Source: Kiloniellales bacterium
GTDB lineage: Bacteria; Pseudomonadota; Alphaproteobacteria; Kiloniellales; JAKSBE01
NCBI GenBank assembly: GCA_028282935.1
Contig: JANQGU010000093.1
Span: forward strand, 1 to 63,277
Length of the DNA: 63,277 bases
Direction of reading: 5' to 3'
This document shows, one piece after another, positions 31,403 through 39,107 of the stretch (its first letter is position 1; the number at the start of each line of letters is the position of its first letter). The notes beneath the pieces were generated by a model that saw nothing but the letters and a program-made list of their open reading frames with translations, was not told the DNA's origin and did not search any database. Position numbers and translations under genes: made by a program.

Positions 31403-32296
31403 CTACATCGCCTCGTCGTAAGTCCGAAAGGCCTTGCCCTTGCCCTGCGACTGGATCTCGTAGATCGACCCGGCCTTCTGCGGCTGGGGCTGCGGGATGC
31501 GGACCGGGACGGGCGCCAGGCGCGGCGCCCTGGTCGCCTCGCCGCAGAGCAGGCGGGCGTCGAAGGCCTCGATGCTGTCGAAGGCCGTCATCGACCCCAT
31601 GACCGGGAAGGCGTCGGCCGCCATGATCTCGTAGAACAGCATCTGCCGGTCGCACTGCGAGGTATTGAGCGCGGAGCCGTGGAGGATGCGGGCGTGATGG
31701 ATCGACAGGCTGCCGGCCGGCCCGGTGAGCGCGACGCCGTCCTCGGGGGAATAGCCGGCCTCGGCCAGATCGCAGGCCCCGGCGAAGACGCCCTCGAGAT
31801 GGTGGTCCAGGATGGGCCCCTTGTGCGATCCCGGGATCACCTGCAGCGGCCCGTTCTCCAGCGTCATGTCGTCGAAGACGATGCCGACCGCCAGCAGGTC
31901 GTCGTTGGTGTGGGGATAGAAGGCGAAGTCCTGATGCCACTGGACCGGCGCGCCGTACTCCGCCTTCTTCATGTTGAGCTTGGCCGTATGCAAGCGGAGG
32001 TTCGGCCCGATCAGCTCGCGCACCGGGCCCAGAATCGCGTCGCTGCGCATCAGCTCATCGAAGAAGGCGCTCTGGAGGTCGGGCCGCTTGATGCGGCGGA
32101 TCCGCGGCTCGGCCCGCGTGTGGCGGTCCTCCAGGTCGATCAGGTCGTCGCTGGCGTCGATGGTCCCGGCGTGCTCCGACAGCCGCGCGATCTCCGCCCG
32201 GCCCCGGGCGACGGTCTCGGCGGAGAGATGGCCTTCGAGCAGGAGGTAGCCGTCCTCGTCGTAGGCCCGCCGCTGGGCCGCGCTGAGATAGGCCAC
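31403..32296 (-). CDS. Phytanoyl-CoA dioxygenase (PhyH) family Fe(II)/2-oxoglutarate oxygenase
   Basis: The GTG at 32296 lies 6 nt after GGGAGGAG. It has the facial triad pattern WHQDFAFYP ... HHARILHGS. The rest of the 1042-aa track ORF is in-frame read-through over the TRAP genes. Confidence 0.8.
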   Translation of the reverse strand: MAYLSAAQRRAYDEDGYLLLEGHLSAETVARGRAEIARLSEHAGTIDASDDLIDLEDRHTRAEPRIRRIKRPDLQSAFFDELMRSDAILGPVRELIGPNLRLHTAKLNMKKAEYGAPVQWHQDFAFYPHTNDDLLAVGIVFDDMTLENGPLQVIPGSHKGPILDHHLEGVFAGACDLAEAGYSPEDGVALTGPAGSLSIHHARILHGSALNTSQCDRQMLFYEIMAADAFPVMGSMTAFDSIEAFDARLLCGEATRAPRLAPVPVRIPQPQPQKAGSIYEIQSQGKGKAFRTYDEAM

Positions 32297-32382
32297 CTCG
32301 CTCTCCTCCCATGCTTCCGCTAGAAGACCGGGGATGATAGCCCGCGCGGTCCGGGACCGCCAAGCCGGGGCCCTTTCCGGCG

Positions 32383-33966
32383 TCAGAGGAAGATGGTGGT
32401 GATCTCGGGAACGCAGAGGATCAGCGCCAGAACGACGAGCTGGATGCCGATGAAGGGCAGGAAGCCGCGGAAGATGTCCGGCAGGGAGATGTGCGGCGGC
32501 GCCACGGACTTCAGATAGAAGGCCGCCGGCCCGAAGGGCGGCGAGAGGAAGGACACCTGCATGTTGACGCAGAAGAGGATCCCGAACCAGACCGACACCA
32601 GGCGGGCCTGATCTGCGAGCCCGCCGGTCAGGCCGAGCTCCGCCACCGGCAGCTTCAGGACGATCGGCAGGAAGACCGGCATCACCAGCAGCACGATGCC
32701 CGTCCAGTCCATGAAGGCGCCGAGGAACAGGAAGATGATCATCATGACCAGGATCACGCCCATGGTCGGCAGCTCGTAGCCGACGATGAGGTTGGCCACG
32801 TAGGTCGGCCCGCCGGCGATGGTGTAGGCGCCGGCCAGCGCCGTCGCGCCGAAGGTCACCCAGATGATCGTGCCGGTCGACCTGAAGGTGCGCATCGAGG
32901 CCTCGCGCAGCAGGCCGAAGGAGAACTCCTTGCGGGCGATGATCAGCAGCAGCACCGCCACCGAGCCGATCCCCGCCGCCTCGGTGATGCCGGTGATGCC
33001 GCCGTAGATGGAACCCAGGACGACGAAGACGATGAGCAGCGGCGCGATCAGCCCCTTCCCCCGATCCCAAGCCTCCTTGGTCCGGCCCGGCCCGATGTAA
33101 AGGGCCAGGTAGGCCAGCGCCGCCGCCAGGTAGACGGCGAGGCCGGCCAAGGCCTCGGTCGACACGTAGCTCATGTCCTCGGTGACCTGGCCGGTGACCA
33201 CCACGAAGGTCCCGCGGACGAGGAACATCAGGGCCAGGCCGCCCGTGACCAGCGCCAGCAGGGCCGAGCCGTAGACCGCCTTGTCCCGGCCGGTCATGTC
33301 CTCGGCCGAGGGCTCGGGCAGCGGCGCCTCCTCCGGATTGAGCCGGGTGCGCACCAGGATGTAGACGATGTAGAGGCCGGCCAGGATGAAGCCGGGCAGG
33401 AAGGCCGCCTTGAACAGGGCGTGGATCGAGGTCTCGGTGATCAGCCCGTAGAAGATCAGCACGATCGACGGCGGGATCATCGTCCCCAGCGAGCCCGAGG
33501 CGCAGATCGTGCCGATGGCCAGGTTCTGGTTGTAGCCGAGCCGCAGCATCTGCGGCAGGGCGATCAGGCCCAGGAGCACCACCTCGCCGCCGATGATGCC
33601 CGACATCGCCGCCATGACGATGGCCATCAGGGCGGTCACCACCGCGATGCCGCCCCGGGTGCGCGACAGCCACATGTTGAGCGAGGAATACATGTCGCGC
33701 GCGATGCCGGAGCGCTCCAGCAGGGTCGCCATGAAGATGAACAGGGGCACCGAGATCAGCACGTAGTTGGTCGTGATCCCGTAGAGGCGCTGCGCCAGGA
33801 CGTTGAGCGGCCCCGTGCCGAAGTTCGAGAACAGAAGGTCCGGCCCGAACTTCAGCACCATGACGACCACGGCGAGGAAACCGGAGGCGAAGCCGAGCGG
33901 CATGCCGATCGCCAGCAGGAAGAGCATGCCGAACAGCAGGATGAGCGAGATCGTGCCGATGTCCAA
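32383..33966 (-). CDS. dctM: TRAP transporter large permease subunit (long, 527-aa form)
   Basis: It is a highly hydrophobic multi-TM protein whose N-terminus MDIGTISLILLFGMLFLLAIGMPLGFA is typical of DctM. Confidence 0.85.
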   Translation of the reverse strand: MDIGTISLILLFGMLFLLAIGMPLGFASGFLAVVVMVLKFGPDLLFSNFGTGPLNVLAQRLYGITTNYVLISVPLFIFMATLLERSGIARDMYSSLNMWLSRTRGGIAVVTALMAIVMAAMSGIIGGEVVLLGLIALPQMLRLGYNQNLAIGTICASGSLGTMIPPSIVLIFYGLITETSIHALFKAAFLPGFILAGLYIVYILVRTRLNPEEAPLPEPSAEDMTGRDKAVYGSALLALVTGGLALMFLVRGTFVVVTGQVTEDMSYVSTEALAGLAVYLAAALAYLALYIGPGRTKEAWDRGKGLIAPLLIVFVVLGSIYGGITGITEAAGIGSVAVLLLIIARKEFSFGLLREASMRTFRSTGTIIWVTFGATALAGAYTIAGGPTYVANLIVGYELPTMGVILVMMIIFLFLGAFMDWTGIVLLVMPVFLPIVLKLPVAELGLTGGLADQARLVSVWFGILFCVNMQVSFLSPPFGPAAFYLKSVAPPHISLPDIFRGFLPFIGIQLVVLALILCVPEITTIFL

Positions 33967-37851: not shown

Positions 37852-37904
37852 GGCCATCCCTCCGGCCACGGCGAGGAGGGCGCAGGAAGCGAAAGGACCC
37901 CGCC

Positions 37905-39107
37905 ATGAATCGTACCGCACCCCATTCGCCCGACTATTACCGTGCCGAGGACTGCGAGCTGGAGGCCTTCGCGGCTCTGACGGCGCGCCGGCTCGATGCC
38001 GCGGAGCTGCCCCTCGCGGCCGCCATCGAAAAGAACCTGCCGATCTACGACATGGAGGCTCTGCGCCCCCTGCTGGAAGACGCGACCCGGCGCCGCGCCC
38101 TGATGGCGGAATGGGCCCAGGTCCTGCGGGCGAGTGCCGGTGCGCTGGTCCTGAAGCGCGCGTTCTCGCGCACGGCGGCGATCGACGCCGCGACCGAGGT
38201 CTACCGCGACACCATCGCCCGGGAGAAGCGCGCGAACGGCAGCGGCGCCGACCACTTCGCGGCCGCGGGCAAGAACGACCGCGTATGGAATTCTCTGCAG
38301 AAGCTCTGCGAGCAGGCGCCCGAGGCCTTCATCGGCTGCTTTTCGAACCCGGCCATCGATGCCGTCTGCGAAGCCTGGCTCGGCCCGGGCTACCAGATGA
38401 CCGCCCAGGTCAACCTGGTCTATCCGGGGGGCGCCGCCCAGCAGGCCCATCGCGACTACCATCTCGGCTTCCAGACCTCGGAGGTCTGCGCCGACTATCC
38501 CGCGCAGGTGCATGAGCTTTCGGCGGCCCTGACGCTCCAGGGCGGCATCGCCCACTGCGACATGCCGATAGAGAGCGGGCCCACGAAGCTGCTGCCCTTC
38601 TCTCAGCTTTACCGGCCCGGCTATGTCGCCTGGCGGCGAGACGACTTCCGCGCCCACTTCGAAGAGCACCATGTCCAGTTGCCGCTCGAGAAGGGCGACG
38701 CGCTGTTCTTCAGTCCGGCGCTCTTCCACGCCGCCGGCGCGAACGAAAGCAGGGACATCCACCGCATGGCCAACCTGCTTCAGGTCTCCTCGGCCTTCGG
38801 CCGGGCCATGGAGGCCGTCGACCGGGACGCGATGTGCAGAGTTCTTTATCTCCATGTCTTGGGCGCCTATCACGCGGGGAGACTGGTGCCGCTCGAGCTG
38901 AAGGCCTTGCTTGCCGCCAGCGCGGAAGGCTATTCCTTCCCGACCAACCTCGACTCGGACCCGCCGGAAGACGGCCTCGCGCCGGAAACGCAGCAGGCGC
39001 TGTTTTATCGCGCCGTCATGAACAACTGGCCCGAAGACGTGTTCCATAGCGCCCTCGACGATCTCAAGGAGCGGCGCCAGGCCGGAAGAGCCTCGACCCT
39101 TAAGTGA
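37905..39107 (+). CDS. Phytanoyl-CoA dioxygenase (PhyH) family oxygenase, 400-aa long form
   Basis: It starts at the ATG at 37905 and has the HRD facial-triad start (QQAHRDYHLGF) and a distal His in LFHAAGAN. Confidence 0.7.
   Translation: MNRTAPHSPDYYRAEDCELEAFAALTARRLDAAELPLAAAIEKNLPIYDMEALRPLLEDATRRRALMAEWAQVLRASAGALVLKRAFSRTAAIDAATEVYRDTIAREKRANGSGADHFAAAGKNDRVWNSLQKLCEQAPEAFIGCFSNPAIDAVCEAWLGPGYQMTAQVNLVYPGGAAQQAHRDYHLGFQTSEVCADYPAQVHELSAALTLQGGIAHCDMPIESGPTKLLPFSQLYRPGYVAWRRDDFRAHFEEHHVQLPLEKGDALFFSPALFHAAGANESRDIHRMANLLQVSSAFGRAMEAVDRDAMCRVLYLHVLGAYHAGRLVPLELKALLAASAEGYSFPTNLDSDPPEDGLAPETQQALFYRAVMNNWPEDVFHSALDDLKERRQAGRASTLK

Follow-up and report, generated by a model that had tools for sequence, protein, structure and literature searches.

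A strain-variable islet built around an uncharacterised dehydrogenase/TIM-barrel pair and a probable organic-acid TRAP importer

The window analysed here is the whole 63,277-bp contig C75 of a metagenome-assembled genome of a Kiloniellales bacterium (G000; 5.2 Mb, 81% complete, about 69% GC). Between positions 31201 and 39159 it carries an islet of seven genes. These encode a tripartite ATP-independent periplasmic (TRAP) transporter (DctP, DctQ and DctM), a dehydrogenase of the 3-hydroxyisobutyrate dehydrogenase (HIBADH) family, a xylose-isomerase-like triose-phosphate isomerase (TIM) barrel, and two PhyH-type Fe(II)/2-oxoglutarate dioxygenases, PhyH1 and PhyH2. The original prediction, made from the sequence of the window, read these genes as one regulator-less oxidative route for a carboxylate taken up by the TRAP system. 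Do the seven genes form such a pathway, or is the islet an assembly of parts that are found apart elsewhere?

The claim that the genes form one regulator-less oxidative pathway is not supported, and the combination is lineage-specific. The seven genes are a strain-variable patchwork around a widespread uncharacterised dehydrogenase/TIM pair and the organic-acid importer associated with it; they do not amount to a fixed new pathway. As to function, the chances are about even that this accessory islet serves the uptake and first conversion of a sugar-acid-like polyhydroxy-carboxylate. The best-supported division of labour takes the TRAP system and the dehydrogenase/TIM pair as the functional core and the PhyH enzymes as variable accessory oxygenases.

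The pair, its importer and the seven-gene set in other genomes

Eighty-seven loci carrying the TIM barrel were assembled (from 6 genomes and 80 metagenome contigs), of which 55 are longer than 5 kb; genes in related loci were called by our own open reading frame (ORF) clustering and annotated by Pfam scans of representatives. In 52 of the 55 longer loci the gene immediately upstream of TIM is that of the dehydrogenase, and two of the three exceptions are contig edges. Of 400 genomes drawn from across the class, 7, belonging to six families, have the TIM barrel, which was not found in 40 near relatives, two genus-mates among them; a scan gave at least 563 metagenome matches. The 120 best-matching database clusters show 76-93% identity, the value between families of the class is 70-75%, and the homologues bear only the name "sugar phosphate isomerase/epimerase". 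The subfamily is very conserved and has no characterised relative. In three complete genomes (L092, L095 and L096) the pair stands alone among unrelated genes.

In 12 of the 55 loci a DctPQM of the window type, with the long DctM, is found 10 kb or less from the pair, in varied orders and in GC backgrounds of 45-69%. A window-type DctP (at least 53% identity) occurs in 16 of the 400 genomes, namely 6 of the 7 that bear the TIM barrel and 10 of the 393 that do not, counts that come from one sample of the class with kinship ignored. The tie between the pair and this TRAP clade was thus borne out by adjacency and by phyletic co-occurrence, the latter supporting a functional tie even where the genes are not adjacent.

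Conservation of all seven genes as one unit, on which the pathway claim had been made to depend beforehand, was not borne out, since the PhyH2, TIM and PhyH1 loci lack the full set. In 80 PhyH2 loci the other six genes have no orthologues (4 of the loci show distant TRAP or HIBADH-family matches), and PhyH2 is absent from the 87 TIM loci, the window apart. Homologues of the TIM barrel (93% identical) and of PhyH2 (80% identical) were found on ENA contigs of the same sizes, 2596 and 11915 bp (P0247/P0122 and P0002/P0121), so that the two genes are probably adjacent in at least two further metagenome relatives, as judged solely from the equal contig sizes.

Twelve of the 55 loci have a PhyH-like ORF no more than 10 kb from the pair; it is a 317-aa protein (PhyH317, in 9 loci by ORF clustering), PhyH1, two short PhyHs (L097) or, in the window only, PhyH2, and MocD-like desaturase-family oxygenases occur in 4 loci. 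Oxygenase genes beside the pair are recurrent, but they are non-orthologous, and the partner changes between loci; the idea that two oxygenases take over from kinase and aldolase is conjectural. Other genes recorded near the pair encode LacI regulators (15 loci), short-chain dehydrogenases/reductases (SDRs; 11), enolase-superfamily proteins (10), several groups of Gfo/Idh/MocA dehydrogenases (6-10 each), PanB-like proteins (8), GntR/FCD regulators (8), a second kind of TRAP (6) and UxaA/GarD-like dehydratases (5).

Two further arrangements were noted. At L171:522-10406, and also in L172, L173, L166 and L143, the pair stands with the second-kind TRAP, two to three Gfo/Idh/MocA genes, a 219-aa protein without a Pfam match, a MocD-like oxygenase and a PanB-like gene. 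At L097:8031-13095 (G194), genes for an amidase, a diverged pair of dehydrogenase and TIM barrel (55% and 51% identical) and two PhyH proteins (264 and 259 aa) follow one another on a single strand.

Predicted functions and the sugar-acid context

DctP, DctQ and DctM match PF03480, PF04290 and PF06808, all above the gathering scores, and as consecutive genes make up a complete DctP-type TRAP. DctM spans the full 413-position family model end to end with about 100 extra residues as an insertion (the long form), and its orthologues measure 539-543 aa. The N-terminus of DctP is signal-peptide-like as judged by eye only. The arginine motif FR173SPPG (FRxxPG) contains a residue, R173, that is invariant in 24 orthologues and that may, by motif resemblance, be the equivalent of SiaP Arg147. 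This motif would be compatible with a carboxylate as the TRAP substrate, in agreement with the prediction. The best solved relatives of DctP are 4pe3 (180 bits), which is presumably an apo structure with no assigned ligand, then the keto-acid binder 7ug8 and the lactate binder 2zzv. In the DctP tree, a clade of 12 cycloisomerase-linked TRAPs, which includes those of L099 and L094, has 100/100 support, and the window DctP lies just outside it with L243 and L242 as its nearest neighbours. It is nearest to G118 (72%), G075 (69%) and a partial copy in L119 (80%); in L119, dctP is divergent from the dehydrogenase/TIM pair, as in the window. A window-type dctP orthologue in L236 (G418:C12:19143-20156) has an in-frame TAG and may be a pseudogene.

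The best NCBIfam match of the dehydrogenase is the L-threonate dehydrogenase model (LtnD, NF043037), at 222.4 bits against a cut-off of 350 and thus below it, with tartronate-semialdehyde reductase models ranking next. No NCBIfam match at E <= 0.001, the OtnI model included, was obtained for the TIM barrel; its PDB matches are weak (23-32 bits), and a profile search gave only Art22 at 23 bits. Its AlphaFold2 model has a pLDDT of 86.8, and the folds it most resembles, at 13-21% identity, are those of the isomerase Art22, D-tagatose 3-epimerases, UlaE and similar enzymes. A putative metal/catalytic set, E157/D188/H214/E262, is invariant among the homologues. An assignment of the TIM barrel as an IolE or Hyi/OtnI orthologue was considered and rejected, as no NCBIfam model matched and the likeness to the IolE-like barrel is one of fold only. 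The predicted resemblance to threonate/erythronate catabolism therefore stands as to kind, with LtnD as best match in an LtnD/OtnI-like pairing, but not as to membership, with the dehydrogenase below the cut-off and no model matching the TIM barrel. The islet has no DUF1537 kinase and no aldolase-type decarboxylase beside the pair, as had been stated, and neither is among the annotated recurrent neighbour families of the related loci, for which no targeted search was made.

PhyH1 and PhyH2 score 114.7 and 100.3 bits against PF05721 (gathering score 22). PhyH1 has the HxD...H iron motif as H121/D123 with the distal His at 200-206, and the iron triad of PhyH2, H182/D184/H275, is invariant in 20 homologues. 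The best solved relatives of PhyH1 are the leucine hydroxylase GriE (5nch), EctD and PHYHD1, all at no more than 72 bits; the match to the EctD model TIGR02408 is partial and below the cut-off (76.1 vs 336.5 bits). PhyH1 orthologues stand beside the pair in L099 (84% identical) and L094 (60%), and no conserved partner was seen in the neighbourhoods of 12 genomes with orthologues at 47-60% identity. PhyH1-like genes (E <= 1e-40) occur in 66 of the 400 genomes and are enriched among those bearing DctP (9 of 16).

PhyH2 matches no PDB entry above 30 bits, and a profile search gave only fungal meroterpenoid oxygenases. Its AlphaFold2 model has a mean pLDDT of 71 and is poor in the catalytic core, where residues 184-213 and 272-302 fall below 50, and the Foldseek matches, generic PhyH folds at TM-scores of about 0.4-0.55, were set aside and used for no functional inference. 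The family is about 393 aa long, 55-92% identical, and present in at least 597 species, being common in roseobacters, Stappiaceae, Paraburkholderia and others. In 70 long PhyH2 loci, a divergent LacI-type regulator is directly upstream in 31-32, IolB is directly downstream on the same strand in 15-21, and IolB, IolD or an IolE-like barrel is within 10 kb in 29. The typical order is iolD, iolE-like, PhyH2, iolB beside a sugar ATP-binding cassette (ABC) importer (for example L031:7074-12019; loci L003-L081, 55-66% identical). The PhyH2 family may be an unrecognised accessory enzyme of inositol/cyclitol catabolism. In the window no IolB, IolD, IolE or IolG gene adjoins PhyH2, and the adjacent TIM barrel is not IolE-like; the iolD and iolB of the same genome are on contig C316, without PhyH2 there. 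A literature search on PhyH in iol clusters, TRAP with PhyH, and pinitol demethylases found no description of these families.

The commonest type of sister cluster contains a gene for a 366-aa enolase-superfamily protein that is the orthologue of VejACI, the Vibrio 3,6-anhydro-L-galactonate cycloisomerase (ACI; 5xd7, 552 bits); the copy in L099 is 73% identical to that product. A second enolase-superfamily gene (388 aa) is nearest to DauB (5olc), a 3,6-anhydro-D-galactonate cycloisomerase, and to the galactarolactone cycloisomerase AtGCI (4ggb) (identities from PMC5698469). Sister loci also hold galactarate/altronate-dehydratase-like, RraA-fold aldolase-like, SMP-30 lactonase, HMG-CoA-lyase-like and CoA-transferase genes, together with SDRs, Gfo/Idh/MocA dehydrogenases and GntR/LacI regulators. 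The G075 locus has Eda, an IlvD/Edd dehydratase, an enolase-superfamily gene, transketolases, SDRs and GntR, and L242, the nearest DctP relative with an informative context, has Eda, IlvD/Edd, an enolase-superfamily gene and SDRs alongside. Given these cycloisomerase, dehydratase, aldolase-like and Eda-type neighbours, every informative sister context is one of sugar-acid catabolism. The window islet shares with the cycloisomerase-linked clusters only the pair and PhyH1, the latter beside the pair in two such loci; ACI, GntR and PhyH317 are all absent from it, PhyH317 was not found in the genome, and DctP is outside the clade.

Two features of these genes were unusual. Within the cycloisomerase-linked TRAP clade, the DauB/AtGCI-like gene is often inserted between dctP and dctQ, as in L127, L132, L245 and L247 (for example L132:14782-19630), breaking the TRAP operon. 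In the window genome itself, an ACI orthologue (L190, G000:C3:1-7715), which shares 72% identity with that of L132, has a BCCT betaine/choline-type transporter and an amidohydrolase as its neighbours, a context that is unexpected for an agar-monomer enzyme.

We infer the substrate class and all of the chemical steps as follows. DctP, by its Arg173 motif, would bind the acid in the periplasm, and DctQM in its long-M form would import it. The LtnD-like dehydrogenase would oxidise the hydroxyl beside the carboxylate to a keto group, and the metal-dependent TIM barrel, with its ketose 3-epimerase/isomerase-like fold, would isomerise or epimerise the keto-acid through an enediol in the manner of LtnD/OtnI. 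A C-H bond of the substrate, or of a decorated form of it, may be hydroxylated by one or both PhyH dioxygenases, and dehydratases, kinases and aldolases with genes in other parts of the genome would act on the products.

Layout, integrity and history of the locus

The coordinates of the islet are given in Table 1. All seven genes were found at the predicted positions and strands and were confirmed by Pfam. They are real and belong to known families, so that chance need not be considered. Start and stop codons are present in 7 of 7 and all frames are intact; purine-rich stretches resembling ribosome-binding sites (GGAGG-type) are clear 5' of PhyH1, DctQ, DctP and the dehydrogenase and weaker for the rest, and GC at third positions is 0.84-0.97 in the five islet genes that could be scored. 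A Dpp/Opp-type ABC operon lies to the left of the islet, and a CHRD-domain gene, a small unknown ORF, an aminotransferase and an NAD-epimerase lie to the right. PhyH2 starts 53 bp past the TIM stop on the same strand.

Table 1. Features of the islet and REP-like copies in the window
Feature	Position	Strand	Basis or remark
REP-like palindromic repeat ("family A")	31260..31384		between ABC ATPase gene stop and PhyH1 stop, left islet edge
PhyH1, 297 aa, Fe(II)/2-oxoglutarate dioxygenase	31403..32296	-	PF05721, E 9e-33; downstream of dctM, same strand
DctM, large TRAP permease, 527 aa	32383..33966	-	PF06808, E 3e-66
DctQ, small TRAP permease	33985..34572	-	PF04290, E 5e-23
DctP, periplasmic solute-binding protein, 340 aa	34652..35674	-	PF03480, E 1e-43
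Divergent spacer between dctP and dehydrogenase gene, 374 bp	35675..36048		sequence reading
HIBADH-family NAD(P) dehydrogenase (beta-hydroxyacid/LtnD-like), 299 aa	36049..36948	+	PF03446 NAD_binding_2 and PF14833 NAD_binding_11
AP_endonuc_2 xylose-isomerase-like TIM barrel, 288 aa	36985..37851	+	PF01261, E 6e-28
PhyH2, PhyH-family dioxygenase with extra C-terminal helical region, 400 aa	37905..39107	+	PF05721, E 2e-28
REP-like copies	635-759, 14164-14294, 28560-28684, 31260-31384, 45466-45599, 61236-61363		in intergenic gaps

A Pfam scan and ORF check between 31201 and 39159 found no regulator, kinase or aldolase gene, as the original prediction had said of transcription factors, kinases and aldolases. 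The description as regulator-less holds for this stretch but reflects a derived state, as sister versions carry GntR and/or LacI. The divergent region between the two arms was likewise confirmed; its half near dctP is AT-richer and its half near the dehydrogenase gene is GC-rich. It contains no consensus sigma-70 match and nothing convincing as a promoter, and its palindromes are short only, none convincing as an operator. The family A repeat exists beside the islet as noted, but it belongs to a genome-wide intergenic repeat and does not mark the islet. This repetitive extragenic palindromic (REP)-like family has about 7 copies on the contig (families D1-D4, cores CCCTCCCCC..GGGGGAGGG) in intergenic gaps. 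The repeat was rejected as a marker of a mobile element carrying the islet because it is genome-wide. One copy was seen within the ABC permease operon.

Comparison with L099, a contig of a close relative, gave nucleotide identities of 92-94% for the flanks, 86% for PhyH1 and 89% for the pair. At the same site L099 has GntR-PhyH1 divergent from ACI-DctPQM-PhyH317-dehydrogenase-TIM, so that 6.8 kb (GntR, the ACI orthologue, a DctPQM of the cycloisomerase-linked clade, clade A, and PhyH317) separates PhyH1 from the pair, vs 3.7 kb in the window. The window TRAP is inverted relative to that of L099, lies outside clade A and has only 70-75% nucleotide identity to it, and homology on the spacer side begins only at about the dehydrogenase start codon. 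Past the TIM gene, only 0.6 kb of L099 corresponds in place to PhyH2, CHRD and the small ORF of the window. In the genus-mate G001, a spacer of 327 bp between the ABC ATPase gene and CHRD, which the aminotransferase follows, takes the place of the islet. That spacer retains, at L262:2728-2925 (C104), an in-frame dctM relic of 28 aa (93% identical, E 9e-11) followed by relics of the PhyH1 C-terminus in the window gene order.

The islet has been lost from G001 in several steps, and since the relics follow the window gene order, the window-type arrangement was already present in the common ancestor of G000 and G001. The site is a recombination hot spot between the Dpp-type ABC operon and the CHRD/aminotransferase block, with a related cassette in L099, and the seven-gene combination and the absence of a regulator are rearranged, derived states. 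PhyH2, to judge from where its orthologues occur, is a locus-specific addition recruited from a LacI/inositol-type context.

Weighing of the readings and comparison with known systems

Several points weigh against a sugar-acid islet with the TRAP system and the pair as its core. No islet gene has a characterised orthologue; the islet holds no regulator; and since the window TRAP is outside the cycloisomerase-linked clade, the context of that clade transfers only loosely. The usual company of PhyH2 is neutral-sugar and cyclitol genes with ABC importers, and the nearest solved relatives of PhyH1 are free amino-acid and ectoine hydroxylases. Because it is solitary in three complete genomes, the pair may act as a two-step module of general use, independent of any single imported substrate.

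The main rival, possible but rather doubtful in our estimate, is that the two arms are unrelated and were juxtaposed by cassette exchange, with PhyH2 belonging to the C316 iol genes (inositol/cyclitol), the pair self-contained, and TRAP and PhyH1 serving another acid. On this view PhyH2, perhaps with the whole plus-strand trio, would serve LacI/iol-type cyclitol metabolism and would simply neighbour the TRAP arm. The LacI and IolB neighbours of PhyH2 orthologues (31-32 and 15-21 of 70 loci), iolD and iolB on C316 without PhyH2, the solitary pairs of L092, L095 and L096, and the inverted TRAP segment at 70-75% identity between flanks at 92-94% all fit such a juxtaposition. However, TRAP and the pair co-occur (6/7 vs 10/393 genomes) and adjoin in 12 of 55 loci in varied orders and over GC contents of 45-69%, PhyH2 begins on the same strand 53 bp after the TIM stop, and two metagenome contigs probably carry both TIM (93%) and PhyH2 (80%), as far as the equal sizes of 2596/11915 bp can tell. 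That the islet is a decaying remnant with no present function is highly improbable; although only relics are left in G001, there is no regulator, and GntR, the cycloisomerase and PhyH317 have been lost relative to L099, all seven frames are intact, ribosome-binding-site-like sites are clear for at least four genes, catalytic motifs are retained, and third-position GC is 0.84-0.97 in the five scorable genes.

Other substrates would change the chemistry. An amino-acid derivative or osmolyte (ectoine-like or a hydroxy-amino acid) hydroxylated by PhyH1 is suggested by GriE and EctD as its best solved relatives and by the partial match to the EctD model, and TRAP systems for ectoine are known. We consider this very unlikely, since the EctD score is 76 bits vs a cut-off of 336, sister loci have sugar-acid genes and no amino-acid catabolic genes, and the solved proteins closest to DctP are keto-acid and lactate binders. 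A route for ether-bridged or O-alkylated sugar acids (3,6-anhydrogalactonate of red-algal galactans, or O-methyl uronic/aldonic acids) that depends on oxygen, and in which PhyH would hydroxylate the carbon beside the ether oxygen so that the ether is opened or removed while the pair processes the acid, is unlikely as well, if less remote. In sister clusters the pair and the TRAP clade are accompanied by orthologues or homologues of the two anhydrogalactonate cycloisomerases, unrelated oxygenases (three PhyH subfamilies and MocD-like) recur by the pair, and FolD or PanB-like genes for one-carbon handling lie near some loci; because PHYHD1 and FJS of the PhyH family are proven sugar O-demethylases, acting on 2'-O-methyl-nucleosides (PMC12709175), oxidative removal or opening of ethers on algal sugar acids is kept under consideration. 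Yet both cycloisomerases are absent from the window, its TRAP does not belong to the cycloisomerase-linked clade, the ACI orthologue of this genome has a BCCT transporter and an amidohydrolase for neighbours, and oxidative opening of a 3,6-anhydro bridge is without biochemical precedent. More broadly, there is a small chance that the pair, the TRAP clade and the interchangeable oxygenases (three PhyH subfamilies, MocD-like) represent an undescribed O2-dependent pathway family of marine Alphaproteobacteria for ether-bridged or O-alkylated sugar acids (for example 3,6-anhydrogalactonates and O-methyl uronates from algal polysaccharides), of which the window would be one variant with a recruited iol-cluster-type PhyH2.

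The window's seven-gene combination does not merit treatment as a pathway of its own. Its value lies in three subfamilies with no characterised member, namely the 288-aa TIM barrel, its LtnD-like dehydrogenase partner and the roughly 393-aa PhyH2, all abundant in marine Alphaproteobacteria (PhyH2 in at least 597 species; TIM with at least 563 metagenome matches). A substrate assignment would annotate a widespread TRAP-linked carbon route, probably fed by algal or plant-derived acids, and could also explain the dioxygenase inside many inositol operons. The locus is a clear small case of cassette exchange and decay of catabolic modules at one chromosomal site in one genus.

Among known systems, the LtnD/OtnI module of L-threonate/D-erythronate catabolism (E. 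coli ygbJ-ygbM), reportedly described by the Gerlt laboratory in 2016, is similar in that a HIBADH-family dehydrogenase adjoins a xylose-isomerase-like TIM barrel in both and LtnD is the best NCBIfam model of the islet dehydrogenase. It differs in that the islet dehydrogenase reaches 222 vs 350 bits, the islet TIM barrel has no OtnI match and folds nearest to ketose 3-epimerases and Art22, and the islet has no DUF1537 kinase (OtnK) or OtnC, neither of which is among the annotated recurrent neighbour families in the 55 loci (no targeted search). With the 3,6-anhydro-L-galactose pathway (VejACI, 5xd7) and the carrageenan dau genes (DauB, 5olc; PMC5698469) the link is through sister islets, which carry both kinds of enzyme by the same TRAP clade and the pair, in L099 at the same site. 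The window islet, however, has neither cycloisomerase and a TRAP of a neighbouring clade, and the pathways as described rely on sugar importers and an aldehyde dehydrogenase and involve no TRAP, PhyH, HIBADH-type or TIM-barrel genes. In the LacI-controlled iol clusters of many roseobacters and Paraburkholderia, PhyH2 orthologues are flanked by iolE-like and iolB genes, and the pair is often beside LacI and IolG-like Gfo/Idh/MocA genes, whereas the islet has no iol genes and its TIM barrel shares only the fold with the IolE-like barrel. EctD, GriE and PHYHD1/FJS have the same Pfam family and iron motif as the islet oxygenases and are precedents for hydroxylation of polar metabolites and for sugar O-demethylation, but identity is low, with PhyH1 at no more than 72 bits and PhyH2 at no more than 30 bits against any solved structure. 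Although the best match is just 180 bits, the TakP/lactate-type DctP proteins (4pe3, 7ug8, 2zzv) are the best solved relatives of the islet DctP, in which the arginine motif is retained.

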